Of a stretch of 38,848 nt of DNA, positions 1-38,618 are shown piece by piece. This stretch comes from Reclinomonas americana ATCC 50394 (Eukaryota). The position numbers were made by a program, and so were the translations under genes. The DNA lies in contig PS015291.1 of assembly GCA_048213135.1 (NCBI GenBank), positions 46,161 to 85,008 of the forward strand. Reading direction: 5' to 3'. The notes under the pieces were generated by a model. It saw nothing but the letters and a program-made list of their open reading frames with translations. It did no database searches and was not told the origin of the DNA. The stretch's first letter is position 1, and each line of letters starts with the position of its first letter.

Positions 1-978
1 TGTCAGTGTCTTGCTCACACTGCCGCCGTGTCCGTCGTCCGACGTGATCGTCACTTGCAAACCGTTGCCAGACAGGCCGCCACCACCCACATTCGCCATC
101 AGTTGAGAGCCACTCAAACTGAACTTTCCGCTGTCGGCACCGCCGCTGATCGTGTACGTCGGCGTCTGGCAGCAGTTGGCATCCACCGTCGACAGCGTGC
201 AAATCACACTTCCCAGTGTGGCCGGCGGCACATACGTAGTCGAGCTGCAGTTGATGTTGGTCGGCGCAACGTTGGCTGCGCGCACGCCAAAGCAAGTCAG
301 TTGGTCGTGTGTGACACAGGGAGAAGAATGATTCTCTTTCCATTTCTCTCTTCCTCTCTCCTCCTCACCTTCATCAATCACAAATGTCCGATCAAACGTC
401 TGACTCGTGCTATCCGTCACTCGCACCGTCACCGTCAGGCCATTGCCTGTCTGGCCGGCGTTGCGTAGCACCAGATTGTTGCCGCCTGCAATGTTGAACA
501 GCGCAGCATTGGCGCCACCTTGCACACTGAACGTGAATGTGTCGCCCACATTGGGATCCACGCCACTCAGCACGCCCACGACCGTATTGGCTGCCGCCGT
601 CGGCGGCACGTACGTCACCGACGTGATCAAGATGTTGGTGGGCGGTTGGGGTGCTGTGTGTGCGCATGCATGAAGAGTGTCAGGAGAATGCAAAAGGCAA
701 CCTCAGACGAAAGGGAGGATGCAACTGTCGGTGATGGTGAATGTTTTCTCGAAGAACAGCGCCCCGGTGCCGTCATCGGTCGTGCGAATCACCACTTGCC
801 ATCCTGTGCCGACTTGTCCGTTGGCGGTGATGCGCAACTGGTTGCCAGAGATGTTGAAGAGAGCGGCGTTGACGCCGCCGGTGATGGTGTAGGTGAACGA
901 CTGGCAGCAATTGACATCGGTGGTGGACAGCGTGCCGATCACAGTGTTGGCCATCGTCGTTGGCGGGCTGTACGATGT
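1..978. repeat. Near-identical duplicate of about 8642-9628 (3 exons plus introns)
   Basis: Direct comparison shows exons and introns aligned with scattered substitutions and small indels. Confidence 0.9.
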
Positions 979-3900
979 TGACGATAGTGAAATGTCCGTC
1001 GGTGCAACGTTTACTGCGAAATGTGCAGTGAGCACAGATGGCGACCGCAAGTTATCACGAGGCAGGGAACGTACCTTCGCTGAACAGGAACGTCTTGTTG
1101 AAAGTTCCACCATGCAAGTCGTCGGTCTTCACAGTGACTTGCAAATTGTTGCCGGTGAGATTGGCAACGGCGCTGCGCACCTGGTTGCCGTTCACCTCGA
1201 ACTTGGCCTGATCCGCGCCACCGATAATCGTGTACACTGGCGACTGGCAACAGTTGACATCCGCAGTTGTAAGCGTGGCCAACACGCCATGCAACCCGGT
1301 GTGCGGTGTATACAACAGCGCAGACGGAGTGATGTCCGTCGGTGCCACATTGGCTGTCAAACGACAATCGAAACTTTAGCGCACGTGTCCAAGCAATCAA
1401 TCTCAAGGAAGTGCTCAACAAACCTTCGTCAACGGTGAACAATTTGGTGAAGACGAGACCGCCACTGTCAGTGACGCGAATCTGCACTTGCAATCCGTTG
1501 CCCGTCTGACCAGCAGATGTGAGCTGCAGTTGTGCACCCGAAATGTTGAATAGGGCCGCACTGGCGCCGCCCACGATCGTAAATGTCGCAGTGTCGCCAG
1601 TATTATTGTCAACCATCGCCAGTGTACCCACAACGCTGTTGGCAGCCGCTGTGGGTGGCGTGTATGTGCTCGAGGATAGAGTGATGTCGGTCGGTGCAAC
1701 GTTTGCNNNNNNNNNNNNNNNNNNNNNNNNNNNNNNNNNNNNNNNNNNNNNNNNNNNNNNNNNNNNNNNNNNNNNNNNNNNNNNNNNNNNNNNNNNNNNN
1801 NNNNNNNNNNNNNNNNNNNNNNNNNNNNNNNNNNGAGAGAGAGAGAAAGAAAGAGAGAGAGAGAGCGAGCAGCTGTGTGTTTGGCTGCTTGTGTGCGGGC
1901 TGGTGTAATAAGTGCGGTGCTGATGGTGGTGTCACTCGCTGTTCACACGCGCAGCCAACATGCCGCCCACGGATATTCTGCTGGACTCGACGACGTACAC
2001 ACCACCGGCCTTTGCTAATACGGCAGTCGGCAACTTTTCAGCCGTGGACGCAAACTGCTGTCAAACATTTGTTTTCAGCTTGGTCGGCGGCGCGGACATG
2101 GCCAAGTTCTTGATCGCCGGTGCTCAACTGCGGACTAACGTAATGGGTGGTCTCACTGGCATGAATCTTGAGGTGACTGTGCGGCTCACCGATGGTTTCG
2201 GTGGCTCGTTTGACAAGACATTCTACATCAACGAAAGTTGCGTTGTGGATGCTGTCGGGTCTGCTCTGGTTGCTCACATTGTGCGCGCAGTCAATCTCGT
2301 TCCATCCAACATTACCTTGTCGACACTGACGTACACGCCACCACTGGCGCTGAACGGAGTCATCGGCTCGCTGACGACTACCGACGGCAACTGCTGTCAG
2401 TCGTTCACGTACTCGATCACTGGCGGTGCTGATGCCGCCAAGTTCGCTATCGTCGGCTCGCAGCTGATGTCGAACGTGAATGGCCTCACCGGCAACAGCT
2501 TGCATGTGACCATTCGCACCAACGATGGAGCTGGTGGAACATTCAGCAAGGCGTTTGTTCTTGACGAAGGTTGGTGCTGCTCGTCAACTTGCACTGCACG
2601 TTGTGTTCCATTCTCATTCTCACTTCCACTCTCGCATTGCCGCAGCCAATGTTGTCCCCACAGCCATCGCTCTGGCGTCACTTCTTTACACACCTGTACC
2701 CGCACCCTCGGGGACTGTCGTTGGAACCTTGACGACCACGGATGCCAATTGCTGCCAGATCTTCACCTACAGCATCACCGGCGGAGCAAATGCAAGTAGC
2801 TTCTCTATCACGGGCAACCAGCTCGTGGCCGTGCAAGGAGGCGCGGGCTTGACGGGCAACAATTTGCTGGTGCGAGTACAGACGGACGACAGCCATGGCG
2901 GGGTGTATAGCCAGACATTCTCAATTAGCGAAGGTTCGTGTGGCAGCTGCGCTGCTTTTAGTTACTATTGTCTCTTTCTCACTCGCTACTTGCANNNNNN
3001 NNNNNNNNNNNNNNNNNNNNNNNNNNNNNNNNNNNNNNNNNNNNNNNNNNNNNNNNNNNNNNNNNNNNNNNNNNNNNNNNNNNNNNNNNNNNNNNNNNNN
3101 NNNNNNNNNNNNNNNNNNNNNNNNNNNNNNNNNNNNNNNNNNNNNNNNNNNNNNNNNNNNNNNNNNNNNNNNNNNNNNNNNNNNNNNNNNNNNNNNNNNN
3201 NNNNNNNNNNNNNNNNNNNNNNNNNNNNNNNNNNNNNNNNNNNNNNNNNNNNNNNNNNNNNNNNNNNNNNNNNNNNNNNNNNNNNNNNNNNNNNNNNNNN
3301 NNNNNNNNNNNNNNNNNNNNNNNNNNNNNNNNNNNNNNNNNNNNNNNNNNNNNNNNNNNNNNNNNNNNNNNNNNNNNNNNNNNNNNNNNNNNNNNNNNNN
3401 NNNNNNNNNNNNNNNNNNNNNNNNNNNNNNNNNNNNNNNNNNNNNNNNNNNNNNNNNNNNNNNNNNNNNNNNNNNNNNNNNNNNNNNNNNNNNNNNNNNN
3501 NNNNNNNNNNNNNNNNNNNNNNNNNNNNNNNNNNNNNNNNNNNNNNNNNNNNNNNNNNNNNNNNNNNNNNNNNNNNNNNNNNNNNNNNNNNNNNNNNNNN
3601 NNNNNNNNNNNNNNNNNNNNNNNNNNNNNNNNNNNNNNNNNNNNNNNNNNNNNNNNNNNNNNNNNNNNNNNNNNNNNNNNNNNNNNNNNNNNNNNNNNNN
3701 NNNNAAAGGACGTAAGGACGATTCTCGACAGCAACGCAAAAGTTGCGCAGCTATCGACCTTGTGTGATGGTAAACATTTTGAAAAATGCCAGGCCACCAG
3801 CATCGACGGCGCGAAGGACTACTTGGAAGCCAGTGCCGATCTGACCGGCGGCAGTGATGCGAAGCGAGGCGCCAAGAATGTTGAACACGGCAGCATCGGT

Positions 3901-5585
3901 GCCGCCGCTCACCATAAACGTGTGGGTGTCACCAACATTTGGATCGACCGCAGAAAGTGTGCCGACCACAACATTGGCGACTGCCGTTGGCGGCGCATAC
4001 GTGGAAGCCGACAGCACAATGTCAGTGGCCGAGACATTCACTGCGCAGAACAAGTGGTGTGTCAGCACCAACACCACATCGCCATCAACCATGAACGCCG
4101 ACTCACCATCCACAATGGTAAACGTCTTGTCGAACCACAATGCGCCAGAGTCGGTGACTCGAATGGTCACAGACAGATTCGTACCGACCTGCCCTGCATT
4201 GACCAGGCGCAAACTTGTTCCAGCGATCGAGAAGAGCGCAGCATGTGCTCCACCCTGAATCGTGTACACAGCCGTCTCCACAGTGTTCGGATCGGTTCGA
4301 CTCAACGATCCGACAGCTGTTTGCGGGACCGTGGTTGGCGGAACGTAAGACGAGTTCGACAGTGCGATGTCCGTGGGCGGCATGTTGGCTGCGCGTGTGA
4401 ACAGAGAGTGATACCACCATCAGCACCACACTTATTACACCAGCCCGCACACAAGCAGCCAAACACACAGCTGCTCGCTCTCTCTCTCTCTTTCTTTCTC
4501 TCTCTCNNNNNNNNNNNNNNNNNNNNTGTCTCTGTCTCTCACACAGAAACACACGAACACGCACCTTCAGAGAGCGTCAGCGTCTTGTTAAACGTCCCAC
4601 CCGCACCATCATTCGTCCGCACAATAACCACCAGATTGTTGCCCGTCAGTCCCGCAACATTCACCCGCACCTGATTGCCACTGATGTTGAACGACGCCGC
4701 ATTCGCACCACCCACAATGCTGTACGTGAACGTCTGACAGCAGTTCGCGTCCACCGTCGACAGCGTGCCCACAACCGTGTTCAGTGGCGCAGGTACCGGC
4801 GTGTACAGTGTCGAGCTGATGCTCACATCCGTCGGTGCAACATTGGCTGCACTCACCACAACACATCAATCGTGTCAGCAGACATCACCCTCCCTTCTTT
4901 TTCCATATTTCCCCTTCCACGCACCTTCGTCCACTGTAAACGTCTTCGAGAACGTGAGCGCCGCTGAGTCTGTCACACGAATCGTCACCGCGAGCCCAGT
5001 GCCAGTCTGTCCCACGTTCGACAGTCGCAGTTGATTGCCCGCAATGTTGAACGCAGCCGCATTCGCCCCACCAGTAATGGCAAACGTGAACACATCACCA
5101 AGATTGCCATCGACGGCAACCAGCGTCCCCACAACCACATTCGTTGACAGCGTCGGCGGCACATACGTTGACGACGACAACACAATGTTCGTCGGTGCCA
5201 CAGGACCTGCATCACTCGACACAGTCAGCACAAAGAATCAACGTACCACAGCACAACACATGCACACGCAACTGTCGGTGATCACAAACGTCTTCTCCAC
5301 AAATGCTCCACTATTGTCAGTCGCTCGCACAATCACCGTGAATCCACTTCCCGTCTGTCCGCTGGCACTCAGTCGCAGCTGACTCCCCGAAATGTTGAAC
5401 AGACCGCTGTCCGCTCCACCACTGATCGTGAGCACGTGCGTGTCGCTGCCATTCGCATCCACCACTGTCATCGTTCCCACGACAACATTCGTACTCGCCG
5501 TCGGCGGCGCATACGTGTTGTTCGACAACACAATGTCCGTCGGTGCCAGGTTCGCTGCATCTCAATCATTCAGTGCACACGCCTC

Positions 5586-5627
<42 letters not shown>

Positions 5628-8600
5628 AGAATTGAAAACCACACCTTCGTTGACGGTGAACAGCTTGCTCAGGGTGCCACCATTTTGATCGTCCGTCTGA
5701 ATCTGCACCTTCAGGTTGTTGCCCGTCAGTCCTGCCACATTCGACCGCAACTGGCTGCCCACAATCGCAAACTTGGCCTGATCCGCCCCGCCGACAATCG
5801 TGTACACAAATGTCTGGCAGCAGTTGCTGTCTGACGTGCTCAGCGTCGCCACCACACTGCTCATTCCAAGCGGCGGCGGATACAGCAGCGTCGACAGAGT
5901 CACATCGCTCGGCGGCACATTCGCTGTGTGTATGCACGTCCACAATGTGTGAGCTCACCACTTCCCACTGCGCACTGCACGTTCTTCTGAAAAGAATACT
6001 CACTCTCGTTCACAACAAACGCCTTCGCAAACGCAAATCCGCTGCTGTCCGTCACTCGCACCGTCACTTGCAGTCCAGTGCCGCCTTGTCCGCTGTTGCG
6101 TAGCACCAGGTTCGACCCAACAACATCGAACAGAGCTCCATTCGTGCCACCTTGAATCGTGTACGTGAACGTGTCCAACACATTGCCATCTGTCGCAGAC
6201 AGCGCGCCCACCGCTGAATTCGTTGATACGGTCGGCGGCGTGTACACACTGCTCGACAGCGAAATGTCCGTCGGTCCAACAGGCACTGCACACGGTGTGA
6301 GTATCATCTCTCTCACGATCACCACATGCCATTATCACACAATATCCGCCGCACTCACCATCGTTGATCGTAAACTGCTTCGCAAACGTCGCACCGCCAC
6401 TGTCTGTCGTCTGCACAACCACCACAAGGCCAGTGCCACGCTGTCCAGCAGCAACAATCCGCAGCTGCGATCCGGCAATCTCAAACACACTGCTGTCCGC
6501 TCCACCCACAATCTGGTATGTGAACGTCTCTCCTGTGTTCGCGTCCGTTGTCGACAGACTTCCCACAACACTGTGTGCCGCCGCAGTCGGCGGCGTGTAC
6601 GTGTTCGACGACAGTGCAATGTTGGTCGGCGCCACATTGTCTGCATACACACGCACACACACACATGAATATCGACAGGATCTCCATCTCACTTCCCTCG
6701 CGCATCACGCAACTCTCAGAGATCGTAAACGTCTTGTCAAATGTGCCGCCTGCCTGATCGTCTGTCCGCACTGTCACCTGCAGTCCGGTTCCGCTCTGGC
6801 CCGCCGCCCGAAGCACGAGATTCGTTCCCGCAATGTCGAACAGCGCACTGTCGCTGCCGCCGACAATCGTGTACACATGAATCTGGTTGGTGTTGGCGTC
6901 CATCGACGTCATACCGCCAATGACTACATTCGTCGTCGCCGTCGGCGGCGTGTACCGCGTCCCAGACAGCAGAATATCAGTCGGGATCACATTGGCTGTA
7001 GACGGCAGCGAGGGGTGAGTTCACCAGGCAGCACTTTAGTATGGACGTATTCGACCACTCACACTCCGACACCAGGAACGTCTGCAGATACGTTCCACCG
7101 TTGCCATCGTTCGTCTCCACTTCCACCTCCAGGTTGTTCCCCGTCTGGCCCGCCGCACTCAGTCGCAGGTTCGACCCACTGATGTTGAACAGCGCCTGAT
7201 TGCTGCCACCAGTGATGCTGTACGTGAACGTCTGACAGCAGTTCGCATCCACTGTGCTCAGTGCTCCAACAACAACATTCGTCGTTGCAGTCGGTGGCAA
7301 GTACACTGTGCTGCTGATGTTGATGTGCGACGGCACCACGTTCGCTGCACGAGTGCGAGCACACCCGTTCAGCACAACCAACTGTTTGTGCACACACAAC
7401 AGGCACCACAATACTCACCCTCGTTGATCGTGAACGTCTTGTTGAACGTCAGTCCACCCGAGTCCGTCGTCCTCACTTGCACCTGCAATCCGGTTCCACC
7501 GAATCCATTCGATCGAATCACCAGATTGCTGCCCACAATATCGAACGACCCAGCATCCGTTCCACCCACAATGCTGTACGTGAACGTGTCTGTCACATTC
7601 GCATCCGTAGTCGTCATCGCACCCACAACACTGTTCGTGCTCGTCGTCGGCGGCGTGTACACCGTCGACGACAGTGCAATGTTGGTCGGTGCCACAGGAA
7701 CTGCGCAGCCGCCATGAATTGAGCAACAACTGGCGGCACATACACACATGCAGACACCAACAACTCACCGTCATTCACAGTGAACGACTTGTCGAACGTC
7801 GCACCACCGCTGTCCGTCGTGCGAATCACCACCACGAGTGCAGTTCCCGTCTGTCCATTCGCACTCAAGCGTAACTGTGTCCCGCTCACATTGAACAGCG
7901 CCTGCGCAGCGCCGCCGACCACCGAGTACACAAACGTCTCGCCCGTGTTGGCGTCCGTCGAGCTCAGTGTGCCAATCACTGTGTTGACCATGCTCGTCGG
8001 CGGTGTGTACGTGTTCGCCGACAGCCCGATATTCGTCGGCGCCACATTGCCTACAACACACGGCAGAGTCAGCTGACTGCATCGTGATTCACAAACACAA
8101 GCTGCGGCACGCACTCTCGTTGAANNNNNNNNNNNNNNNNNNNNNNNNNNNNNNNNNNNNNNNNNNNNNNNNNNNNNNNNNNNNNNNNNNNNNNNNNNNN
8201 NNNNNNNNNNNNNNNNNNNNNNNNNNNNNNNNNNNNNNNNNNNNNNNNNNNNNNNNNNNNNNNNNNNNNNNNNNNNNNNNNNNNNNNNNNNNNNNNNNNN
8301 NNNNNNNNNNNNNNNNNNNNNNNNNNNNNNNNNNNNNNNNNNNNNNNNNNNNNNNNNNNNNNNNNNNNNNNNNNNNNNNNNNNNNNNNNNNNNNNNNNNN
8401 NNNNNNNNNNNNNNNNNNNNNNNNNNNNNNNNNNNNNNNNNNNNNNNNNNNNNNNNNNNNNNNNNNNNNNNNNNNNNNNNNNNNNNNNNNNNNNNNNNNN
8501 NNNNNNNNNNNNNNNNNNNNNNNNNNNNNNNNNNNNNNNNNNNNNNNNNNNNNNNNNNNNNNNNNNNNNNNNNNNNNNNNNNNNNNNNNNNNNNNNNNNN

Positions 8601-11600
8601 NNNNNNNNNNNNNNNNNNNNNNNNNNNNNNNNNNNNNNNNNCGTCAGTGTCTTGCTCACACTGCCGCCGTGTCCGTCGTCCGACGTAATCGTCACTTGCA
8701 GACCGTTGCCAGACAGGCCGCCGCCACCCACATTCGCCACCAGTTGAGAGCCACTCACACTGAACTTACCGCTGTCGGCACCGCCACTGATCGTGTACGT
8801 CGGCGTCTGGCAGCAGTTGGCATCCACCGTCGACAGCGTGCAAATCACACTTCCCAGTGTGGCCGGTGGCACATACGTAGTCGAGCTGCAGTTGATGTTG
8901 GTCGGCGCAACGTTGGCTGTGTGCATGCCACAGTAAGTCAGTTGATTGTGTGTGTGAAACAGGGAAGGGAGAAGAATGATTCTCTTTCCATTTCTCTCTT
9001 CCTCTCTCCTCCTCACCTTCATCAATCACAAATGTCCGATCAAACGTCTGACTCGTGCTATCCGTCACTCGCACCGTCACCGTCAGGCCATTGCCTGTCT
9101 GGCCGGCGTTGCGTAGCACCAGATTGTTGCCGCCTGCAATGTTGAACAGCGCGGCATTGGCGCCGCCTTGCACACTGAACGTGAACGTGTCGCCCACATT
9201 GGGATCCACGCCACTCAGCACGCCCACGACCGTGTTGGCTGCTGCCGTTGGCGGCACGTACGTCACCGACGTGATCAAGATATTGGTGGGCGGCTGAGGC
9301 GCTGTGTGCGTGTGCGCATGCATGAAGAGTGTCAGGAGAACGCACTAGGCAACCTCAGACGAAAGGGAGAACGCAACTGTCGGTGATGGTGAATGTTTTC
9401 TCGAAGAACAGCGCCCCGGTGCCGTTATCTGTGGTTCGTACTCGCACCTGCAAGCCACCGCCGACCTGTCCGTTGGCTGTGATGCGCAACTGGCTGCCAG
9501 AGATGTTGAAGAGAGCGGCGTTGACGCCGCCGGTGATGGTGTAGGTGAACGACTGGCAGCAATTGACATCGGTGGTGGACAGCGTGCCGATCACAGTGTT
9601 GGCCATCGTCGTTGGCGGGCTGTACGATGTCGCAGACAGTGACAAGTTGCTCGGAGCCACATTCGCTGCATCACGTCGGATAATGAGTCTACCCTCCACA
9701 GCATGTTGACCCCAGTCGACTGCATGACACTCACCTTCGCTAATGGTGAATGATTTGGAGAACTGTCCGCCATTCTGGTCGTCGGCTTGAATCGTCACCG
9801 AGTACGAGTTGCCGGTAAGGCCGCTGACATTGCTCAGCAACTGATTGCCGGAGATGGCAAACTTGGCTTGATCCGCGCCACCGACAATCGTGTACACTGG
9901 CGACTGGCAGCAATTGGCATCCGCTGTCGAGAGCGTGCCAATCACTCCGTTGAGTGCGAGTGGTGGGGTGTACAGAGTGCTCGACAGTGAAATGTCCGTG
10001 GGGACGACGTTAGCTGCATGCGTTGCGAAGCCATGTGAGCGAAAGCGACTGGTTCGATGAGAGGAAGTGCAGCACACTCACCTTCGTTAATGGTCACGGT
10101 TTTGTTCACGAACAGCGACCCGGTGCCGTTGTCAGTCGAACGAATGATGACAACGAGTCCAGTCCCCGTCTGCCCGGCGGCGGTGATGCGCAGCTGATTG
10201 CCAGAGATGTTGAACAAGGCTGCCGATGCTCCACCTTGAATACTGTACGTGAACGACTGGCAGCAGTTCGCGTCCACTGTGCTCAGCGTTGCCACGACAA
10301 TGTTGGCCCCCGCAGTCGGTGGCACGTATGTCGAGCTCGACAGCACAACGTCCGTCGGCGCCACATTTGCTGTGTCGCACACACACAAAGTCAGCGAGAT
10401 CATACAAGCCCCGCTGCACACACCATCAAGACGTACCCTCGTCGATCGTGAACGACTTGTCCACAAAGAGTCCACCGGCACCGCTGTCAGTCGACCGCAC
10501 CGTGACGACCAGCCCGTTGCCGGACTGACCTGCGTTGGTGATGCGCAGACTGCTCCCTGAGATGTTGAACAGAGCAGCGTTGGCGCCCCCCACGATGGAG
10601 TACGTGAACGTCTGACAGCAGTTGCCGTCGGTGGTAGACAGAGTTCCCACGACGCTGTTGGCGGCGGCCGGCTTTGAGTACAATGTGCTAGACAGTGCGA
10701 TGTTGGTCGGCGCAAGATTGACTGCGGAGTTGGGACAGGGATGAACATAGCTGCAGAGCACAACAACACATGCTGGCGAGGATACCTTCGCTGATCGTCA
10801 GCGTTTTGCTGAAAGTGCCACCGTTCTGATCGTTGGTGGTGATCTGCACTTGCAAGCCGTCTTCTGTCAGCCCCGCAATGTTCGAACGCAGCTGCGCGCC
10901 AGACAAGTTGAACTTGGCAGCGTCAGCGCCGCCACTTATCGTGTACACAAATGTCTGGCAGCAGTTGCCGTCGGTGGTGGTCAGCGTGCCAATCATTCCA
11001 TTGAGAGCAAGTGGTGGCGTGTACACGGCCGACGACAGCACAATGTCGGTCGGCGTGAGATTCGCTGTTTTTTCAGTGAAGAATGAGCGTAAGGCGGAGA
11101 GTGTACAAGGTGACAGCAATGCGTGTCTCACCTTCGTTAATTGTAAACGTCACGCTGACGAACAGAGAACCGCTGCCGCTGTCCGTCGAACGGATCGTCA
11201 CCTGCAGTCCAGTTCCGGTCTGGCCGCTGCTTGTAAACCGCAGCTGCGAGCCCGAAATGTTGAACAGGGCTGCATTTGCTCCGCCGACAATCGTGTAGGT
11301 GTACGTCTGACAGCAATTGGCATCGGTAGTCGACAGTGTGCCAATCACTGCATTCGCGCCAACCGACGGCGGTGGGTACGAAGTGCTTGACAGCGAGATG
11401 TTAGTCGGCGCCACGTTGGCTGCAGTCGGATGTAGGCGTGAGAAAAGGAATACTGGATATGAGGGATCGCATGCTCTATAAGCTGCCGCGCAACTCTCGC
11501 TGACTGTGAACGTCACGTCGAAAAACAAGGAGCCGGTGCCACTGTCGGTCGACCGCACAATCACCACGTATCCGTTGCCAGTGAGACCCGCGCTGGTGAT

Positions 11601-14600: not shown

Positions 14601-15501
14601 AACTGGTTGCCCTTGATGCTGAACTTGCCGGCGTCAGCACCACCGACGATGCGATAGGTGATGATGGCCGGTGTCAACGAAGCCGACGGAATGAGGGTGA
14701 CCGATCCCATGGTGGTGGCCCAACCGACGCTAACGTGGTCCGTGCTGGCACTCTGCTTGTGTCGTACTTGCATGTAGATGACCTGGCCAGCCGTGAGACT
14801 GTAGCTGCCGGCTTGCTGCGAGGCGGCCTTATTCCACTGCTGGTACGTTGTGGGACTCGGTGTCGTGCTGGATACGCTCGCCACGGCTGTAGCAGTTGAA
14901 GCGTCTCCGCTCGTACTCAACCACAAATCGCACTCGTCGTCGCACGAAATGTAGAACCAGTAGTTCGCCGTGCTGGGGATGGTGACAAAGGCGGTGAGGC
15001 GTTGGCCGTAGTTGGTGGAGTTGAGATCGCTCTCGAAGCCGCCGCTGCTCACAATGCTGCACTGGTTGGGAATCGAGGTCCACGTGACGGAGGCCACCGT
15101 GGTGCCGGCAATACCCTGTGATGTGTTGGCGTTAAGCGGCGGATAGTGGAGACGGAGCGATGCGTTGGCCGACCGAACCGTAAAGTACTCCAAGTAGAAG
15201 CCAGTGGCTCCCGTCAGACTGTGACACGTGTTGGCATCCGTGGTGCTCAGCGTGCCAATCGCACTGCCAAGCGCCAGCGGATTGGAGTACGTAGTAGACG
15301 ACAAGGCGACGGCAGTGGGTGCCACATTGCCTGGCGAGCAACGCATCATGAGACACAGTCAATCACAGCAACACGCGCCACACGCCACACGCACTCTCAC
15401 GCAAGTAGAACGTCGTCGAGAGATAGCCACCCCACCCGTCATTGGCTTTCACGGTAACCTGCGCCACGAAACTGTGAGTCGGCGCGGGAGAGGGAGGGAG
15501 G

Positions 15502-15576
<75 letters not shown>

Positions 15577-15770
15577 GACGACGACGTACGTACGTACGTA
15601 CGTACGTACGTACGTACGTACGTACGACGTACGTACGACGACGACGACGACGACGTACGTACGTACGTACGTACGTACGTACGTACGACGTACGACGACG
15701 TACGTACGTACGTNNNNNNNNNNNNNNNNNNNNCCTAACCTTCCTTCCGTCCGTGGTCGCCGTCTGGACC

Positions 15771-15808
<38 letters not shown>

Positions 15809-25400: not shown

Positions 25401-28400
25401 AGTCAGTCGCACAGCACAAGGGCGAAGCACGCGAACGTGAATATTAGAAACGCAACATGGAGCCGCCGACAGTGTTCGACTGTGTGGTGTTTTGTCCCCG
25501 CAGACTCGTCACGTCGCCATCCCCGACAGCTTGGTCAGGGCGACGAATGCGTACTGCAGTGCCACTGGACGCGAGCAACGAAATCTGTGGGGCGCAGTCT
25601 GCGTCAGACTGACAGCTCACGCAGGAAGCACATGCAACGACAACCCCGACGAACAATGCCAGTGGATGACTGCAGCGAGAGATCCGTGGCCGCTTGCGAA
25701 GAGACCTGATTGGCAGTGAGCTGACTCACGGAGAGCGTCCCCGCCAGTGAAAGCGATCCCGAAAAGGTCACATTCTCGGCCACCACCAGCTGCGTCAGTA
25801 GCGTGGTCAGCTTCGCCACAAATGTGGTGCACGATAAAAACACGCTTGTCTCACCGATCCGAGCACACGCGTCACACGACCCGAAGATCCGAGCTGCACC
25901 TCTAGTGCCGCATTGGATCCGCCCGTCACAATCACAATGTTGGAGTTTTGCGAAGACAGGCGCAGTTGGTCGCGCCCATTCACCTGCACACTGATGCCTT
26001 GCAGCACCACCTGCAACCAAGCGGTAAGTGCATGTACAACAGTCTGCGTATGAGGGGACGCGCAACTTGATTGGTGCGGAATGAGGCGGCGCCGAGTGTC
26101 AGATTGCCGTCCGCTGCGCCCGACGAGCTCTGTCCGGCCTCCACCCGCAAGTCGAGCCCCACGCCATTGATTGCTGGTCGTGTGAGCGTGAACCATGAAG
26201 CAGAGGTAGTGCTGCCTAGCTGGAGAGCGTCGATTGATGGCACCAAGAGGCGGCCGTTGAGAAGACTCAGGGAGTTCCCAATCGATGCCGTGCCGCTCAC
26301 GGTGAGCGACGCCGCGGAGAGCGCTCCCGACATGGTGACAGTTGCCGATTGAATCGAGGTGGCACCCGCGGCGTTGCCAATCTGCACGTCGCCTCGCACG
26401 GAACCCACATACACGGCACCGGGGGCAGACGAACCTGGACCAGGGTCCAACGCACTGATATGCGCCAACAAATTGTTATTCTCCAGTGGATGACACCAAG
26501 TGGCACGGAGTAGACGGAAAACTCACACATCGCCGCCAACGCCACCGGTCGCCTGCTGGCCTATGATGCTGATCCGAGTTGCAGTTGCCGCAGCTGCGCG
26601 ACTAATGACACTGCCGAAGCCAGTTGGACCCAGAACAATGCGACCCGTGGTCGGTTGCACCGTCAGGTCGGTGCTGGCAGCAGTGGCAATCGACGGAGTC
26701 TGCACACCGCCACTGGCCACCAGGAGACTGCTCATTGACACTGCGCCGTTGAGGGTGACGGTGGCAGAAAATGTGGCCGCTTGGGAGAACGTGGTGGCGG
26801 CATTGAACGTCGACTGTCACGTGCGATTCAGAAGAGCGCAGTCGACATCACAGGAAGAAATTACTCTCCGGACAACGTACCACGCCAGCCACAGTAATCG
26901 CGTTGCTTGCACTACCCAGCGTTACGGAGCCGGCAAGAGACGTTCCCACGAGCAGAGACGTACCAGCACTGATTGTCACTGTGCTGCCGAGGAGGGTCGT
27001 CTGCGAGAGCACACACGGATGTGAGAATCGCTCGCACGAGAGTGCCGTCAGTATACGAGAAGTTCTCACCGTCGTGGACGATGCACTGCCCAGCGCAACA
27101 CCACCGCTGTTCTGGCCGACGCCATCGACACCGCCCACGACAGTCACGCTACCGCCAGACTGCCCCGAGCCGCCGACAATGGTCACCGAGCCACCCACGG
27201 ATCCTGCGCCACTCACAGTTGCACCCTGCAACCACAACGTGCCAGCAGGGCCGGAGGCGGTGGTTGGGCTGGTGCGCTGCACGACAAATTGAGTGGCATC
27301 GCTTGCGCCCAGCCACACGGTCGGTGGTGCGCTCCCCGATGTGGCTTGCGCGAGAACACGAGTTGCTGCCGAAAGTAGCAGATTTCCGCCATTGATCTGC
27401 AGCACTGGCGAGTTCACCAGTACGCCACCAGAACTCGTGGCCTTGCCAAGCACGACTTGCGACGCAGTTACCGTGCCGAGTTTCACGGCGCCCTCCTGCG
27501 ACGCTGTGGCTCCCGCTCCGCCATCGACATAGCTGTGTTGGAAAGCACCGCGTCAGTCGACTGCTTGCGCAACCCAGAGAGGAATCGCTCTCACGCAACA
27601 TGTCTCCGCCTGACAGCCCCGTAGCACCCTGCTGACCAACGTACATGGTGTCTCGGCCGGCAAGCGACGAGTGAGGTGGACGAGCAATGGTGAGAGGGGC
27701 GTCGTCGCCAAGCCGCAAGATGCCACTCGTCGGCACCAGCGCGAGGTCTCTCGGTGTGCCACTCGCCGAACGCAGCAGATTGCTCACCAACACGTTGCCG
27801 GAGACCGTGAGCGCCGTGCCCACCGACAGCTGCACTCATTGCTGTCAGACACACGCTATAGATTGACAGAGAAAAAGAATGGCTGCTTACCGTTCCGGGA
27901 ACGCTGACCGCCGACGAGGATGCTCCAAGCGTCACCGCGGGCGACGATACCACCGTCGACTGTACTCCGCTCACCGTCACCAACTGTGCACCGATACGAA
28001 CCTGCAAAGAGACACAAAAAAACAAGTCAGACAGTGCTGGCGGCAGCGTGCGATTCCAACACTTTTGATACCTCCGTCGAGACGTCAGTATCGGCGCCAA
28101 GCAGCAGTCGCCCATTTGCGCCACCACCGCTTCCCAGTGCGGGTGTGATTCGCAGATCGCCCCCCACCAGTGCTCCACTGCCAGTTGGTGCTGAACGTGA
28201 CAGCACAAACTCGGCGCTCCCCACACCACCCAGCGACAGCGTGCCACCATCGTTCTGGCCGACAGTCACCCGGCCGCCGACAGCCACATCCAACGAACCA
28301 GCAAGCCGCGTGGCGGCGGCTGACACGAGCAGCGTTGACGCGGCCTTGCCAATGACCGTGGTGTCAGCGGCTGTGGTTCCCAGATACAACGTGCCGGCCG

Positions 28401-31400
28401 ACCCGGCACCCTTGCCAGCATCCACGTACCTGTGGGGGCAGATACGCCAAGTCACACAACAAGACAGAAGACGCACAGGAAGGGAATCGGTGCTCCACCA
28501 CCACGCACATTGAACCGCCCTGCTGGCCCACGCTCTGCACGTCTTGTCCGACCAGGTACGTGTCGAGACCGCTGGCACTCGCAGCCGCTGTTGGTCGCGA
28601 TATGCGGAATGCTCCCGAGGTGGATGCCGTGCCGAGTCGAACACGGGCACTGGCCGCGTCGAGAATAATGTCGCCAGTCGCGGCACTTGTCAGCGTACTC
28701 GTGAGAGTGCCGTCGAACGAAAGCGCGCCACGCAGGGTGGCACTGTTGGCCACCGTAAGCTGCCAGTGCGCATTTACCGTGAGTCAGCAGATGGTGATGC
28801 GCGGAGGAGTGCACACAAGAGGGTACCACTCACCGGCGACACGACAGTGACCGTGGAACCCGAACGACCCACAGTGACTGGGCCAGAAGTCGCTGCGGTC
28901 GCAATGGTAACGCTCGTCGTACCATCCAGCGCAATCGTGGCGCCCTCGGCTTGCACCTGTGGTGTGAGACGCGAATCAATTGAGAGAGTGCATTGACGGT
29001 GACGAGACGCGTGCGCACAGTAACAAACCAACTGAGTGGTGGACGAGCCGAGCCAGAGAGTTGCGCTTGTGACGAACGCACCAGTGCCACTGGACGGCGC
29101 AACGCGCAAGTGTGCGCCAATCACATCCATTGCCACGGGCGTCGGACGAGTGAGTACAAACACCGAGGCAGCCGTGTTGTCACCGAGCAGCAATGAATTG
29201 GCCGTCGTCGACGCCACAGCCGTCGAACCGACAATGAGCCGCGTGTTGACCTACAGCAGTTGCGTGTGAGTCAAGTCTGTGGCGCGCTGCTTGTTTCCAG
29301 CATCACGCACCGTGAGGTCACTTTGCGATGTCAGGCCTGCAGAGGCCACCGTGGGCACAGCGAGTAGCACAGTGCGCGTATGCTCGGTGCCGATTTTCAC
29401 ATCGCCGTGCACCGTACCGCCGGCACCAGCATTTAGCAGTCTGCGCGTAGTTGTGAACGATTAACTCGACAGAGGTGCAGACGACATGTGTTAGCAACGT
29501 ACAGTGGACCGCCACTGCCGGCTCCGGTGGTGCTTTGACCCGAAACTCTGGTAATGGACCCGTTGACGCTGTCGGTGCGCGCGGGTCGGCTGATCTCAAA
29601 GTCGGCCAGAGCGCCCACACGCAGCAACTGCGTCTGTGACGCGCGCAAATCCAGCGCAGGCGAGCCCGACAGTTGGTCAATGGCCGACATGGAGAGCGAC
29701 TGCGCCACTTGCAGCTGCGACACACACACAGCAGAAGCAGGGGCGTTTAGTGAGAATTGTGTGGAGTAAACAACAACAACAGAAGAAGGAGAAGCGTACC
29801 GATCCGACAATGGAGACACTCTGTCCGGAGCTGCCAACAATAACAGTTGGAGCGGTTGCGCCGATGAGCAGTGTGCCTGCCGAATCCAGCACCGTCTGCA
29901 CACGCGACGTGACGGAAACCTGCGCGCGACGCTCCCACTGTGTGAGCGACGCAAATATGATAGAATTGTACCACTGTTGACACGCACTTGCGAGGTCCCG
30001 GAGGTGGAACCGATGGAGATGCTGCCGGGTGAACCCCCACCTGCTCCCGCGCCGCCTGCAAGCACCAGATCGACACCGACGGCAGACGCACTACCACTTC
30101 GCGCGGGACGCGAGAGGACAAATTGTGACTGCGCCTCGGTGCCGAATTCCAGGCGACTGCCGCTATTGACAATACTGCTGTTCGTCAGGGTGCTGATTGT
30201 GGCACCTGCCGTAAATGATGCGGCTGCAGAGAATGTCGCAGGTGATGCCACCGTCACCGATCCGCTGGACACACCGAGTATAATCTAAGGCGACAATCCG
30301 TGTTCGACAGAGTGAGTAAAACAGCACGACACACAGCCACAGCAACGACAAAGGCTGCAACATACCTGCCCGGCATTGACAGTGGCCAGTCGCACGATTC
30401 CAGCGCCGGCAGGACCGGTACCTCCATCCAGAAGCCTGCGAGGAATAACAAGTCAGGCACTCCCCCTCCAAAAGAGGGAGAAGACAGCGAGACGTAACAG
30501 ATCGCCACCGGCGCCGGCATTCGCCGTCTGACCCGCAACGCTGAGAGCAGAGGCGGAGGATTGGCCATTGACAGGTGCGCCAAGTGTGATAGTGGCACCG
30601 CCTCCACTGCCGAGCACCAAGCGTGCCGAGCTGGGGAGCAGAGTCAAGTCGACACCGGCAGCAGAGGAGATTTGCGACACGGTGAGGGCGTCATCGATCT
30701 GTGACGCGGTCAGCGTGAGAATGCAAAGGAATGTGTAGACAAGCACATGTGCGCGCACCGTGGTGGCCTTGGTCAGGCGGATTCGACTGCCACTCGTGGT
30801 GACGGTGAGTTCCCCGGAACTTGCACTCACAGACATGCTGGCGTTGAAGGACACGGCAACCAGATTGAGGCGAGCACTCGCCGATGGATTGGCAGTTTGC
30901 GCTGTCAGCACAGCGTCGCCACTGCTCGACTGCACCGAGACACCGCCGGCAAAATTCACGGCACTCTCGAAACTGAATGTACCCGACGCCGGAATGGAGA
31001 AGATGCGGTTGCGAGTGGGACCGAGGAAGGTGAGTGCGCTGGCGTCGGCCACGATGCTGTAGAATTGCGACATGTCGGCACGAATACCAATCTGCATCTG
31101 GCCAGCAACCGCTCCATCACCGGTTCCAGCAGGACGAATCTGTCGTGCAGATGAGTGGAGCTATGACAAAAGTTGACAAGAGGTGAGAAAGAGCTAGTGC
31201 ACACACCTGGAACAACCGTGTGCGTGCTTGCACAACACCAGAGAGTGTTGGGCTGTCGCTCGCTCCCGCTTCGATGTAAATGTTGCCGCCTGAGGCACCC
31301 GTCACAGAGCCTGCCAGAAGAACACAATGATTAACGTGGTGTTCTACGAATGGCGATAGAGCCTGCACACTTATTCACTCACCAGCCCCGCCCTGAAGAC

Positions 31401-33676
31401 GCGTGTCGCCACCCGGAGAGCCGGCGCCGGCGGTGAGCACAAGTGAACCGCCAGCTGATGCCGCCGCTCCCTGTGCTGGCGCTGTGAGAACCGTGGCGAG
31501 AAGAGCACAATGTATCTCACAGCCACATACCCGCGAATCCTGTCCAGAGAAAGTGGTGGTTCCGCCAACGCCGCGCAGCGTTTGCACTCGTGTAAGTGAC
31601 AAAGGCACGCCCGGAGTGTCATCCAGCAGCTCCACGGTGGACGTCATGAAGCGCATGCTGGTCGTGGTGGTGATGGTCGACGTGCTATTGGTGCTGCCAG
31701 AGTTCGTTTGTAGCAACCTGCGCATGCGCACACACGGCATGTCAGCAATCGCGTCTGATCACGCAAAAAAATAAGATAGCGACACGGAGAGTCGACGCAC
31801 GAGCGGCCAGTTTTTCCATCCACCATCGGCAGCGACTGTGTGGTCATCGTCTGCTGCGGCAAAAATGCCAGCAGCGTCTGTTGTCCGCGGGTCAGAGTGA
31901 AGCTCTGCAGGCCGGTGCTGGCCAACCGGAACGACGTGGAGTCGTCGTCGGCTACACCCGAGGATGTGGACGACACAAAGACCACTGAGGAACTGGTTGG
32001 CGATCGAATGGTGATTGAGGACGGTGACGAAGGCGATTCGACGCTTATTACTGGTGCCGAAATGACCTGCGTGGCCTGCAGAGTGGCGGCAGTGGCCGAG
32101 CCTGTGGGGCGTAAGGAGAGCGAGTGAGGGGACACGGGGAAGAGAAGAGAAGAGAATGGGAGTCACAAACCCGCCACCGACAGGCTGGAGATGCGAACAT
32201 CCGGTCGCGCCAGCAAGAAAAGCACGACTCCCAGCATTGCCCAGAACAGTACCACGTGCACCACAAATACAGTGACCACGACAGCATCCTGCCGTGGTCT
32301 AGCACGCACACCGCACTGATAGAGGGCGCGGCGCCACCAGGCGGCCTTGGGGCTCTTGGGCGCACTCTGCAACTCCAGCGGCGACGACGGCTGTGCATCT
32401 CCAAACGGCGCCGACCTCGGCCACGCCGCCCACGTGTCGAGGTGCGACGGCGGCGACATGGGCACCTGATACATGGCCGACTGCGGCGGCGCCGGCCCAC
32501 CCAACGGCACCATGNNNNNNNNNNNNNNNNNNNNNNNNNNNNNNNNNNNNNNNNNNNNNNNNNNNNNNNNNNNNNNNNNNNNNNNNNNNNNNNNNNNNNN
32601 NNNNNNNNNNNNNNNNNNNNNNNNNNNNNNNNNNNNNNNNNNNNNNNNNNNNNNNNNNNNNNNNNNNNNNNNNNNNNNNNNNNNNNNNNNNNNNNNNNNN
32701 NNNNNNNNNNNNNNNNNNNNNNNNNNNNNNNNNNNNNNNNNNNNNNNNNNNNNNNNNNNNNNNNNNNNNNNNNNNNNNNNNNNNNNNNNNNNNNNNNNNN
32801 NNNNNNNNNNNNNNNNNNNNNNNNNNNNNNNNNNNNNNNNNNNNNNNNNNNNNNNNNNNNNNNNNNNNNNNNNNNNNNNNNNNNNNNNNNNNNNNNNNNN
32901 NNNNNNNNNNNNNNNNNNNNNNNNNNNNNNNNNNNNNNNNNNNNNNNNNNNNNNNNNNNNNNNNNNNNNNNNNNNNNNNNNNNNNNNNNNNNNNNNNNNN
33001 NNNNNNNNNNNNNNNNNNNNNNNNNNNNNNNNNNNNNNNNNNNNNNNNNNNNNNNNNNNNNNNNNNNNNNNNNNNNNNNNNNNNNNNNNNNNNNNNNNNN
33101 NNNNNNNNNNNNNNNNNNNNNNNNNNNNNNNNNNNNNNNNNNNNNNNNNNNNNNNNNNNNNNNNNNNNNNNNNNNNNNNNNNNNNNNNNNNNNNNNNNNN
33201 NNNNNNNNNNNNNNNNNNNNNNNNNNNNNNNNNNNNNNNNNNNNNNNNNNNNNNNNNNNNNNNNNNNNNNNNNNNNNNNNNNNNNNNNNNNNNNNNNNNN
33301 NNNNNNNNNNNNNNNNNCCATCCTCGTAATCACCATCATTATCCATGGTGGCGTGCGTCGTGAATGGCTGAAACGGTGCGTCTTCTCCCTGTTGCGCAGT
33401 GGGCACAGGCAGTGGACGCAGTCGCCACGCACGTGGTCGCGCAGACATGAGCTGAGCTGCGATGGACTGCTGCTGTTGCTGTTGTTGCTGTTGCTGGGCA
33501 AACTTGGACGGCGACGATGACGATGATGATTGTGAGAAGTGATCGGGCGAGGATGCGAACGATGATGCATCCTCTTCCTCCTCCCCCTCCTCCTCCTCCT
33601 CCACTTCTCGCTGGTGTTGTTGTTGCTCAAGTACTGTGTGATTCTCGTCAGAGTCGTGTGAGGAGTCGGCGGGCAT
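19477..33676 (-). CDS. Very large (roughly 3,500 aa) type II membrane protein with a G/S/T/A/V-rich beta-repeat, fibre-like ectodomain
   Basis: Acidic/polyQ disordered N-terminus (MPADSSHDSDE...), then a single TM (VVVTVFVVHVVLFWAMLGVVLFLLA, ~32210-32285). About 40 or more exons join in frame, with recurring GG(D/S)xxxD(A/G)G motifs. The C-terminus is ...VYYYDGTNWLEVFNMYGDTLP*. Two N gaps interrupt the gene and the start codon is inferred. Confidence 0.75.
20170..21350 (-). repeat. 183-nt (61-aa) coding tandem repeat, partly collapsed in a gap
   Basis: Unit AYFAGQVNVGTLSDGTCTITGGAITGCTSATVSTFVQLGTLLKAAADNTADIGTNAVKFKD occurs on both sides of the gap. gtccttgaac recurs at 21021 and 21204. Confidence 0.85.
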
Positions 33677-33935: not shown

Positions 33936-36260
<2,325 letters not shown>

Positions 36261-37079
36261 TTTGTGCTCCCAGGGCGCTCGGAAGCGATAACACACGCGC
36301 AGTGACTCAGCCTTACGGTGACGTACGCGACGTGGTGAGCGCGGGTTGCTTCCGGATCGACTGCGTGCTGCGGCGGCTGACATTCTTCTCTCTCTGCTTC
36401 GTTGCTCGATTGGTCGGTTAACGAGAAACAGGACGCGCAGCGATTGCTGAAAAGTGTGCCATGATTGGTGGTGTTCTCTCGCGTGCGTGTGGGAAGTTGA
36501 TAGCGCTGTGGTGGCCTTGTGTTTCCGCGACCTGCGAGGTTGTTGACGTCGACGTCCGATATCGATATTAGTGTCGCCTTGCTTGCGGGAGAGTGGTGAG
36601 CAAGTTCTGCCTACTCGCGCAGGCGCTTGAATGACTGCTAGATGCAGTCGACGTCCGGCAGGAGAGAGAGACACGGATGCACAAGAAAACCGAGAATGAC
36701 TCAATCGGAAAAATGTTGACGAAGGGGGCACAATCGCGAACTCTGGAAGGCGACGATAGTAGCAGTACATGCGTTCAATGTACATGGTGTTAGGAAGACC
36801 AGCAGCTGAAGTCGTGCGACCATTCGTCATGATCGGCGAATACCGGAGTCGCGATCGGATCGATCGACGGCGAGTTGAAGTGCGGTGGATTCCACGCACC
36901 ACTTTCGACTTGTGACGAGCAGCGGAGACAAGAACGCCGACAATGTTACTCTCTCTGCGCACCCAACCTCTGCCTTCAACGCACATGTGGTGACTGTGCA
37001 CTCACCAGAGTTGTGCAGGGCAATTGCAAAACCAATATTCACGCGTGTTGACACCGCGGCCGCTGGTGCGTCGGCCGCC

Positions 37080-38618
37080 ATGCAAGTGCCACACCTGGTC
37101 GAGTCCATCCATCAGCACCTTCTTCACGCACTCGCGGAGCGGGATCGCAAGGCGCGCGCGCTGGTGTTGCGTTTTCCAGCAGTTGTCCTCGACATTTGCG
37201 AACCGGTCGTGGATGTCTCGGGTAAGGCCATCGATCTGATGTATGCGATCTGTGAGGCCGCCGGCTACATGCCGTACACCAAGCATTGTGCTTGCCAGTT
37301 GTTCCTGCAGACCACGCTGCGACATGCAGAGGCTGCACTGTCGAATTCGTCTTCTGCTGCAAGTGGCAAGTTGTGCAATTGCAAATGCCGATTACTGTGG
37401 TCTCCCACGTACTCGCGATGCCTGCAGCACTGACGCGCGAGTGATCTGTGCACAGGCATGACATACCAGGTCGCAAGAAGCGCTCGCGAGGGCGTGATGC
37501 CGACGAGGATCGGCAGCCGCAGAATCCGGGGAGTGCCAGCAGATCCTCGCAGCCGCGACTGAACTTGCAGCTCACGGCAATCGCCTGCGTGACCATCGCT
37601 CGCAAGGTGAGCGACCGCGAGAGATCACTCCCTTGGTTCCAGTGCAGGTACTGAAGAAGCACTACGTGCAGATGCACGAACCACTGTTGGATTTGGAGAC
37701 AGAGGAGGACGAGAAGAAGTTGGCATTGTACGAGCACTTCTCTGACTTGGCTTCCAACCTGTGCGACGGCCACTTTAGTGCCAAGGACCTGCTGCGTGCT
37801 GGTGAGACACAGACAGGCGCAGCTGCTGTCCTTGACATTTTCACTCACGATGCTCCAGAGTTGGAGACACTGTCGCTGCTCAACTTTGCCTGCCACCTCG
37901 TCACACCGTGGGATTTCATCGAGGTGTACGTGTCCGTGATCAGGTACCACCACTGCCATCGCTTTCTCCTCTCGTCGCCGCCACCGGTTTGTTCACCCGT
38001 ATCGTTGGCAGTATTGGTCAGAGCGAACTGGTTTTGCGCACGTGCGACTTGGTTCTCTCCAAGTGCATGCACCAGCGCATCATGCGGTGCGCACACACCA
38101 CGACAGTTTTCATGTGACACTCACTCGCACTCACCTTCAAAATCGCAGCAAAACACTGGAGATCAGTCCGAGCTCGCTGCCGATTGGTGAGGCGCCGTGC
38201 CTCTCTTCTCTCTCGATCGCGATCGCCCGCACGCCATTCTCACCGCAAGAGTACACACGGGTGAGCAGAGCTGTTCTTGGACCAGGAGACGTTCATGCCG
38301 CTTCTGGCGTCGGCGTGCATCTCCGCCGCCTGCACCCTCATGTACGGCCCTTTGCATGCGGCGTCGGTAGTGGGATTCGGTATGTCTTCATCACTGTCAC
38401 ATGGCTGCTGCTGCTGCTGTCACTGACAAATGCACGCACGCACAGTGTGCACGGCGTCTGGGTGCGACACTGCCAACGTCAGCACGCTCGCCGAACTGCT
38501 GATGAGCAACGGCATCGGCATTCAGCACCCACTGCTGCTGCCGACGTCGCCCGCATCCCACCGGCGTCGCTGCACTGGCGATGATGACGATGATGATGAT
38601 GATGACGACGACGAGTAG
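37080..38618 (+). CDS. Divergent cyclin-fold protein
   Basis: Cyclin-box motifs LQLTAIACVTIARK and E-LETLSLLNFACHLVTPWDFI, then a C-box-like YGPLHAAS and an acidic poly-D tail. Multi-exon. The start is uncertain (an alternative ATG lies at 36829). Confidence 0.75.

Follow-up and report, generated by a model that had tools for sequence, protein, structure and literature searches.

A putative class of W|GTT-R-C-G 5′ splice sites in a Reclinomonas americana locus and its possible reading in a +1-shifted register

Introduction

Can a genome make regular use of 5′ splice sites (donors) whose consensus lies one base out of its usual place? This question is raised by a 38,848-base stretch of the Reclinomonas americana ATCC 50394 genome (assembly GCA_048213135.1, contig PS015291.1, forward-strand positions 46,161 to 85,008), which we call the window and number from its first base. 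The window is eukaryotic, GC-rich and dense in short introns; it contains ten blocks of N (20–803 bases), and the G+C content of its unmasked parts is approximately 57%. A first-pass annotation, which was made from the letters alone, had listed 26 introns starting with GTTGCG or a similar hexamer and had proposed that U1 small nuclear RNA (U1) reads them one position out of register. In our curated set of 87 introns, 24 (28%) start with GTT-N-C-R, 55 carry the usual G at position +5 (+5G donors), and 8 belong to neither group. The typical form of the 24 donors, which we designate the GTT class, is W|GTT-R-C-G-(T), where the bar marks the junction between exon and intron. The sites of this class are very probably genuine donors. 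That they are read by U1 in a +1-shifted register is a proposal to which we give about an even chance.

Intron set

The genes were modelled by dynamic programming with scores for GT..AG borders, codon log-odds and length and with bonuses for a branch motif and for YAG; a donor matrix was left out of the model because circularity was to be avoided. This donor-blind model placed GTT[GA]CG donors at 17 of 92 minus-strand introns and also chose the donor at 2237 on the plus strand. In an antisense control on the cadherin gene, none of the 35 pseudo-introns started with GTT[GA]CG.

Because overlong exons and missed in-frame introns are typical errors of this model, it was corrected by eye as follows: (i) the donors 24765, 22811, 10767, 9728, 7409, 5623 and 18581 were replaced by 24771, 22815, 10785, 9734, 7418, 5644 and 18585, respectively, and the pair 18455/18403 was replaced by 18408; (ii) the in-frame introns 30758 and 23567, the donor 13787, seven introns of the EF-hand gene, three of the cyclin-like gene and four of the first gene fragment were added; and (iii) uncertain introns were dropped, namely 32170, 31236, 25307, 21102, 19953, 19768, 19509, 19300, 19089, 18963, 18795/18738, 17382, 17327, 17072, 16918, 16830, 16119, 15816, 13880, 12007, 8045, 4593, 4466 and 1875. 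Two of the replaced donors, 24765 (GTTACC) and 22811 (GTTGCT), were rejected as artefacts in favour of G|GTAGGT (24771) and G|GTTCGT (22815). Runs of (GT)n and (CA)n are frequent in the introns, with the result that the donors 25307, 19953–19959 and 5623–5644 are not exactly placeable.

The +5G donors of the curated set are mainly GTGAG (21), GTGCG (16) and GTACG (6). The GTT class comprises 19 GTTGCG, 2 GTTACG, 2 GTTGCA and 1 GTTTCG (18408). All 26 coordinates given in the first-pass annotation carry the hexamers reported for them on the reported strands, and at each of them the exon ends in A or T. As members of the class, 24 were retained in the curated set, and the remaining two were set aside as ambiguous. 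The candidate intron at 18676–18738 on the minus strand (donor T|GTTGCGTT, GTTGCG) has an in-frame alternative donor, AGT|GTGTGTG, 57 nucleotides upstream at 18795 with the same acceptor. The candidate intron at 37370–37455 on the plus strand (donor A|GTTGTGCA) has the in-frame alternative GTT|GTGCAA and is not of the GTT-R-C-G type. The nine bases GTTGTGCAA are common to this candidate donor and to the one at 31236 on the minus strand, each of which has an in-frame GTGCAA three bases downstream.

Evidence for a distinct donor class

The hexamer GTTGCG is not rare in the window: it occurs 33 times on the minus strand, where a first-order Markov model predicts approximately 21 occurrences. Therefore, the signal lies in its placement at intron starts rather than in its count. 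T[GA]CG follows 36 of the 2663 minus-strand GT dinucleotides (1.35%), compared with 21 of the 87 curated donors (binomial tail 2e-20).

For 17 of the 24 GTT-class introns, the junction is fixed without donor rules, by paralogous spacing or by protein motifs. Eleven of these junctions lie at cadherin-repeat boundaries. All 32 such boundaries carry a phase-1 intron that separates ...FTIxE from x-NVAPT, a single residue lying between the two, and the 11 GTT junctions keep the spacing set by the 21 paralogous boundaries that have other donors. These introns, on the minus strand unless noted, are located at 654–725 (donor A|GTTGCATC, a GTTGCA variant), 2237–2290 on the plus strand in a separate gene (A|GTTGCGTT), 5207–5272 and 6641–6713 (both A|GTTGCGTG), 9302–9377 (A|GTTGCGTT, with the acceptor set by paralogy with the 725 intron), 11420–11494 (A|GTTGCGCG, a multiple of 3 in length and free of in-frame stops), 11780–11850 (A|GTTGCGTC), 12527–12595 (A|GTTGCGGA), 12881–12942 (A|GTTGCGTA), 13726–13787 (A|GTTGCGTC) and 14073–14140 (A|GTTACGTG). 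The 13787 entry is the 5′ part of an intron whose 3′ part falls within the N block 13134–13725, and it was placed by the exon end that it has in common with 12942 and 11850.

Four further junctions, all on the minus strand, lie within the GG[DS]-x|[YML]-x-D-[AG]-G motif of a long gene with beta-helix-like repeats: 23025–23095 (donor T|GTTGCGTT, GGD-M|MFDAG), 25390–25456 (T|GTTGCGTT, GGS-I|YIDAG), 27533–27599 (T|GTTGCGTG, GGD-I|YVDGG) and 30436–30498 (T|GTTACGTC, GGD-L|LLDGG). The acceptor 25390 was chosen for the 25456 intron because a CTGAC branch motif lies only 3 nucleotides before the TAG chosen by the model, and a search for an in-frame alternative donor to 30498 found none. A fifth copy of the motif is interrupted by an intron with a normal donor (28508). 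The intron at 16348–16410 (-) (donor T|GTTGCGTA) lies inside a PA14 domain, and its removal yields TTGS-Y-KFYMAGDDETDLW, which aligns without gaps to STANYWFYISCDDECDLW in the intron-less second PA14 domain (open reading frame 15358–14357). The intron at 34560–34617 (-) (donor T|GTTGCGCC) lies between D1 and V2 of an EF-hand loop, and splicing there would yield the canonical 12-residue loop DVNGDGWLTFDE. That protein motifs fix the junctions at 34617, 16410, 25456 and 27599, as had been claimed, is thus borne out by the loop, the ungapped alignment and the motif copies.

In their other features, the GTT-class introns resemble the +5G introns. All 24 start with GT, and the 22 with known acceptors end in CAG (20) or TAG (2); CAG ends account for 34 of 40 in the +5G class. 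The median lengths are 67.5 nucleotides (GTT class) and 69 nucleotides (+5G class), the G+C contents are 0.55 and 0.53, and the branch-like motif YTVAY occurs in the last 45 nucleotides of 20 of 22 and 34 of 40 introns, respectively. CTRAC is present in 9 of the 22 GTT-class introns. These introns would thus be short U2-type GT-AG introns with a distinct donor motif. Among the six paralogues in tandem between 14140 and 11494, ungapped identity is 75% over the last 60 exon bases, 87% over intron bases 1–7 and 35%, that is to say near random, over bases 8–45. The motif has been kept while the intron bodies have decayed, which argues for function.

A direct duplicate (2–978 versus 8643–9630; 94% identity over 990 bases) contains both the 9377 intron and its copy at 725. 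The donor GTTGCG at 9377 corresponds to GTTGCA at 725, a G-to-A difference at +6, and the latter may be a tolerated variant or may belong to a decaying copy.

We infer splicing at the GTT junctions from reading frames, paralogues and protein motifs, and on these grounds the sites of the class are very probably real. An error turning one T into two in sequencing was rejected as an explanation, on judgement only, because it would leave the preference for W upstream and for R-C-G-T downstream unexplained.

Register of the GTT class

Replacing the first intron G of the local consensus AG|GT[GA]CGT by T, and moving the cut one base upstream, yields the GTT motif exactly. Paralogous pairs illustrate this relationship directly. 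The intron at 8051–8114 (-) has the normal donor A|GTGCGTGC and the same exon end as its cadherin-boundary paralogues, with one T fewer (A|GTGCGT versus A|GTTGCGT); similarly, the intron at 28430–28508 (-) in the motif GGS-M|YVDAG has T|GTGCGTGG, a normal donor that lacks the additional T of 27599, 25456 and 23095 (T|GTGCGT versus T|GTTGCGT). The exon end is a base other than G in both members of each pair.

The bases flanking the junction were compared among the classes of window introns, and they agree with the predicted depletion of exon -1 G and enrichment of +6 G and +7 T. Exon -1 is G at 0 of 24 GTT-class donors, compared with 42 of 55 +5G donors and 7 of the 8 other donors without +5G (Fisher's exact test, 3e-11 and 2e-6); among introns outside the paralogue families (singles), the figures are 0 of 9 versus 27 of 35 (p=3e-5). 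This absence favours a +1 shift over a bulge at +3, because a bulge keeps the exon pairs whereas a shift puts the intron G into the exon -1 slot. The +6 base is G in 22 of 24 GTT-class donors. The +7 base is T in 17 of 21 GTT[GA]CG donors and in none of the 12 copies of the hexamer that lie in minus-strand exons in sense orientation, and the former share is close to that of T at +6 in normal donors (38 of 55).

A mechanism consistent with these patterns would be as follows. With the first intron G of an ordinary site replaced by T, the only available GT would lie one base upstream, and cleavage would occur there. U1 would align to the site one position out of its usual register, such that the slots of exon -1 and -2 would be filled by the intron's first G and the last exon base, respectively, and the G at +6 and the U at +7 would act as +5 G and +6 U do in ordinary donors. 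U6 would later align likewise, with one extra nucleotide to accommodate.

Pairing energies were calculated with the canonical U1 5′ end AUACUUACCUG (printed in PMC4856993), which may not be the U1 of this organism, and with nearest-neighbour parameters that omit pseudouridine. In the canonical register, the +5G donors average -6.69 kcal/mol (n=55), and all 24 GTT-class donors score 0.0 kcal/mol, making this the best register for none of them. The shifted register is the best at 12 of the 24 sites, and the +3 bulge register, with a mean of -0.23 kcal/mol, at 2. The GT[GA]CG donors that lack exon -1 G also pair weakly in the canonical register (mean -1.61 kcal/mol, n=8); therefore, weak U1 pairing appears to be tolerated generally when +4 is C.

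Several observations weigh against the shifted register or against the intron set on which it is built. With canonical U1, the shifted register averages only -0.73 kcal/mol over the 24 donors, 10 of which have no stable register at all, and unconstrained duplex folding gives mostly other, trivial pairings (mean -1.35 kcal/mol). A plain shift predicts that exon -1 should mirror the normal -2 position because it occupies the -2 slot; however, exon -1 of the GTT class is A at 17 sites and T at 7, with no C and no G, whereas normal -2 is A at 19, C at 17, T at 11 and G at 8 of 55 sites. A G·U pair with U1 U10 should moreover be tolerated at exon -1. No GTTGAG donor occurs in the window set, compared with 21 GTGAG donors (raw p=1.8e-5); among singles the comparison is 0 of 8 versus 10 A and 19 C (p=0.08), significance is lost once repeats are collapsed, and the absence is suggestive at most. 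For seven of the 24 junctions, open reading frames on either side and ordinary intron features are the only support: 34824–34891 (donor A|GTTGCAAG, a GTTGCA variant) and 34430–34492 (A|GTTGCGTC) in the EF-hand gene, 26011–26066 (A|GTTGCGCG), 24491–24565 (A|GTTGCGTG) and 22603–22662 (A|GTTGCGTC) in the beta-helix-like gene, and 18340–18408 (A|GTTTCGTG, a variant donor in an intron whose length is a multiple of 3) and 17807–17879 (T|GTTGCGTC) in a membrane-protein gene, all on the minus strand. The curated set itself comes from a home-made model and from inspection by eye, with approximately 30 model introns moved or dropped. Finally, one sense-strand copy of T|GTTGCGTT lies at 37166 (+) within the first exon modelled for the cyclin-like gene; the motif would then be insufficient for splicing, or the copy would belong to an unmodelled or alternative intron.

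The claim of a +1-shifted register therefore stands in part. The exon -1 pattern, the displaced consensus and the distribution of best registers agree with it, and the near-nil pairing with canonical U1 and the lack of C at exon -1 do not.

Frequency of the class

The first-pass annotation had put the share of the class at roughly a quarter of introns and had placed it in all five genes. The proportion agrees with the 24 of 87 introns found here, as an estimate for the window only and one dominated by two repeat-rich genes; the gene count does not, as the window holds six to seven gene models. Part of the count does come from repeat duplication, as had been noted: two paralogue families account for 15 of the 24 sites, and the duplicates in the window include one that is 94% identical and tandem repeats that are 75–81% identical. 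The number of independent positions is nevertheless at least 11 (nine singles and two paralogue families), which agrees with the earlier count of more than 10 sites at unrelated positions. When singles only are counted, the GTT class makes up 9 of 50 introns (18%), and in the EF-hand gene, 3 of 7 introns have GTT-class donors.

Alternative readings

Two alternatives concern the existence and the weight of the class. In the first of these, the GTT junctions would be artefacts of the gene model, the true junctions lying elsewhere (at the GC at +4/+5, in GC-AG introns, or at other in-frame GT dinucleotides) or the segments being retained, with GTTGCG merely common near exon ends. The hexamer is indeed more frequent than expected, an in-frame GC occurs three bases downstream at every site, the model did extend exons wrongly at 24765 and 22811, and in-frame alternatives exist at 18738 and 37370. 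However, the GC-AG reading, which we rejected, adds one residue, which is incompatible with the cadherin spacing set by 21 boundaries, with the EF-hand loop (34617) and with the gap-free PA14 alignment (16410), and upstream alternatives remove conserved GG[DS] or FTIxE residues. The empty antisense control and the conservation of the motif over decayed intron bodies also speak against an artefact, and many GTT introns are not a multiple of 3 in length and must be removed. We consider this explanation very improbable. The class could alternatively be real but trivial, a few odd donors multiplied by repeat duplication that would be rare genome-wide and far from mainstream. The concentration of sites in two paralogue families, the high identity of the duplicates and the small number of genes in the window are what this reading would lead one to expect; by contrast, the nine singles lie at unrelated positions in four other gene contexts, the EF-hand gene included, their share is still 18%, and the donors are intact in paralogues with randomised intron bodies. 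Such a trivial origin is, in our estimation, decidedly unlikely.

The other two alternatives accept the donors and differ in how they would be recognised. In a one-nucleotide bulge, -1, +1 and +2 would pair normally with U1 (and with U6), one U of +2/+3 would bulge, and +4 to +7 would pair as +3 to +6 ordinarily do. A single extra T is what relates the GTT donors to their paralogous normal donors, a +2/+3 bulge is a validated human register (PMC4856993, according to its Fig 1C legend and Table 3), and U6 must take up an extra nucleotide in any case, given the established pairing of the 5′ splice site with the ACAGAGA box. The intron with donor 21691, G|GTAACGT, also resembles GTACGT with an extra A and keeps exon -1 G. 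Yet a bulge that preserves the pair between -1G and U1 C9 would be expected to preserve that G as often as in normal donors (76%), and it was found at none of the 24 sites; moreover, the bulge is the best register at 2 sites compared with 12 for the shift. We regard the bulge as unlikely. Canonical U1 may, on the other hand, not be the reader at all, and recognition could depend on an altered U1 5′ end with positions 5–6 complementary to G-C, on a dedicated U1 paralogue or on a protein that recognises UUGCG(U). The near absence of pairing with canonical U1 in either the canonical or the shifted register points in this direction. In a scan of all 16 dinucleotides at U1 positions 5–6, which is a thought experiment and no evidence on the real U1, G-C was the best for every class (-8.79 kcal/mol for +5G donors and -7.0 kcal/mol for the GTT class), and the canonical U-U was the second worst for the GTT class. 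C faces U1 nucleotide 5 in 46 of the 79 donors of the two main classes (24 of 55 +5G donors and, by definition, 24 of 24 in the GTT class), and the GTT class has no GTTGAG member. The last argument is not significant after collapsing of repeats, the two GTTGCA donors have no following G, 18408 is GTTTCG, and normal GT[GA]CG donors without -1G are likewise weak, as if weak pairing were tolerated in general. The 5′ end of U1 is almost invariant across eukaryotes, and genomes rich in GTGCGT donors exist that are not known to have an altered U1. Recognition by something other than canonical U1 therefore seems improbable to us. The same low standing applies to its evolutionary form, in which the lineage would have re-tuned 5′ splice-site recognition through a U1, or a second paralogue, with positions 5–6 complementary to the G-C of GUGCGU, to which W|GUUGCGU would pair equally well and thus come to serve a fifth to a quarter of introns.

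Comparison with known splice-site systems

Shifted-register 5′ splice sites in human genes were reportedly described by Roca and Krainer in 2009 (Nat Struct Mol Biol). That study is cited as shifted-register work in PMC4856993 and appears in the reference list of PMC9311317. According to PMC4856993, shifted and bulged registers between the 5′ splice site and U1 are proven in human cells; validated noncanonical registers account for 1.5% of 201,541 human 5′ splice sites; 68 sites are predicted for the +2/+3 bulge, with the still rarer shifted register at a few sites; and the validated shifted test oligonucleotide ACAGUCAAGUAUA has a predicted energy of -6.5 kcal/mol with canonical U1.

The human shifted-register sites resemble the GTT class in several respects: the exon ends in a base other than G, a consensus displaced by one base follows the GU, whose G lies opposite U1 C9 in the place of the exon -1 G, and cleavage occurs at the GU. 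They differ in that they are a handful of sites with good pairing to canonical U1, whereas the GTT class comprises 24 of 87 window introns with poor pairing; in that they have A-A-G where the GTT class has G-C-G; and in that they are proven by experiment and the GTT class is predicted from sequence. The bulge and asymmetric-loop registers (Roca et al. 2012; Tan et al. 2016, PMC4856993) have in common with the GTT class an irregularity near +2/+3 and a G one base past +5 that pairs with U1 C4; by contrast, the human bulge sites keep exon -1 G, which is found at 0 of 24 GTT-class sites. The GTT class appears to behave like a shifted-register site and is probably a high-frequency form of a known rare mechanism.

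U12-type (minor) introns resemble the GTT class in that their 5′ splice sites differ in sequence from those of the other introns in the same genome and form a second class. Minor-class introns have the 5′ end RTATCCTT and the branch site TCCTTAAC. These sequences occur in 0 of 24 GTT-class introns, and a U12-type identity was rejected. Introner-like elements are mobile intron families in which sequence is common along the whole intron, and they likewise produce many introns with a common unusual start. Membership in such a family was also rejected: the bodies of the GTT introns are unrelated, with 35% ungapped identity over bases 8–45 among six paralogues, and the singles appear unlike by eye.

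Among the literature matches listed, no description of a GTTGCG/GUUGCG donor class was found, which does not establish its absence from print. The matches listed for a concept-level search consisted of the human register work and general reviews only.

Genes and other donors in the window

From left to right, the window contains (i) a cadherin-repeat gene fragment (1–1700, minus strand); (ii) a related cadherin-repeat fragment (1865–2990, plus strand); (iii) a giant cadherin-repeat gene with approximately 30 repeats and two PA14 domains (about 3750–16800, minus strand); (iv) a gene for a multi-pass membrane protein (about 17300–19800, minus strand); (v) the long beta-helix-like repeat gene (about 21000–32200, minus strand); (vi) the EF-hand gene (about 33950–35150, minus strand); and (vii) the weakly cyclin-like gene (about 36900–38600, plus strand). 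The relatives retrieved with the PA14/cadherin open reading frame, by a word-indexed search and an exhaustive profile search, were bacterial only (Planctomycetes and Bacteroidetes), with representatives at most 41% identical. The product of the beta-helix-like gene is very long and rich in G, S, T and A, with the recurring motif GG[DS]x-YxDxG, and possibly forms a beta-helix. A protein query with its 217-residue exon at 26881–27531 found no homologue in a search crowded by low-complexity candidates. Exon 37648–37941 of the cyclin-like gene had no match in a protein search, and a protein atlas look-up gave weak EF-hand-like leads only. An Rfam scan of the window gave 0 matches, as did a metagenome scan with a 20-nucleotide string comprising an exon end and its donor. 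A long (TC)n microsatellite at 35190–35314 and an ACG/TACG-rich repeat at 15440–15700 adjoin blocks of N.

The window also holds other unusual donors. Seven of the 8 donors of the group without +5G carry exon -1 G (GAG|GTCTCT, AAG|GTCTTT, GAG|GTATCA, AAG|GTATCC, AAG|GTGCAG, CAG|GTACCA and GCG|GTAACG), and -2 is A in 7 of the 8; they appear to form a separate group that leans on the exon side. Two of them, GAG|GTCTCT and AAG|GTCTTT, lie in the EF-hand gene at 35057 and 34725 (-). A cadherin-boundary intron at 10722–10785 (-) starts with G|GTATCCTCG, which is near the U12-type RTATCCTT and the only such start in the set; no convincing TCCTTAAC branch site is apparent in its tail, ...TGTCCCAACTCCGCAG. 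The donor at 28071 (-), GAG|GTATCAAAA, is a second GTATC donor. The in-frame intron at 21620–21691 (-) starts with G|GTAACGTA, that is to say GTACGT with an extra A, keeps exon -1 G and may be a bulge-type counterpart of the GTT class.

Implications

Proof of noncanonical registers between the 5′ splice site and U1 is confined to a small minority of human sites, according to PMC4856993. Gene finders that expect GTRNGT donors from their training would get many gene models of this organism wrong, and even the donor-blind model used here needed hand correction at several junctions. If the reading of the W|GTT-R-C-G donors in a +1-shifted register is true and that register serves roughly a quarter of introns, the organism would offer a natural system for studying how a displaced or bulged donor is accommodated by U1, U6 and Prp8, whether splice sites and the near-invariant U1 5′ end can co-evolve, and how exon -1 is traded off against intron +5/+6.

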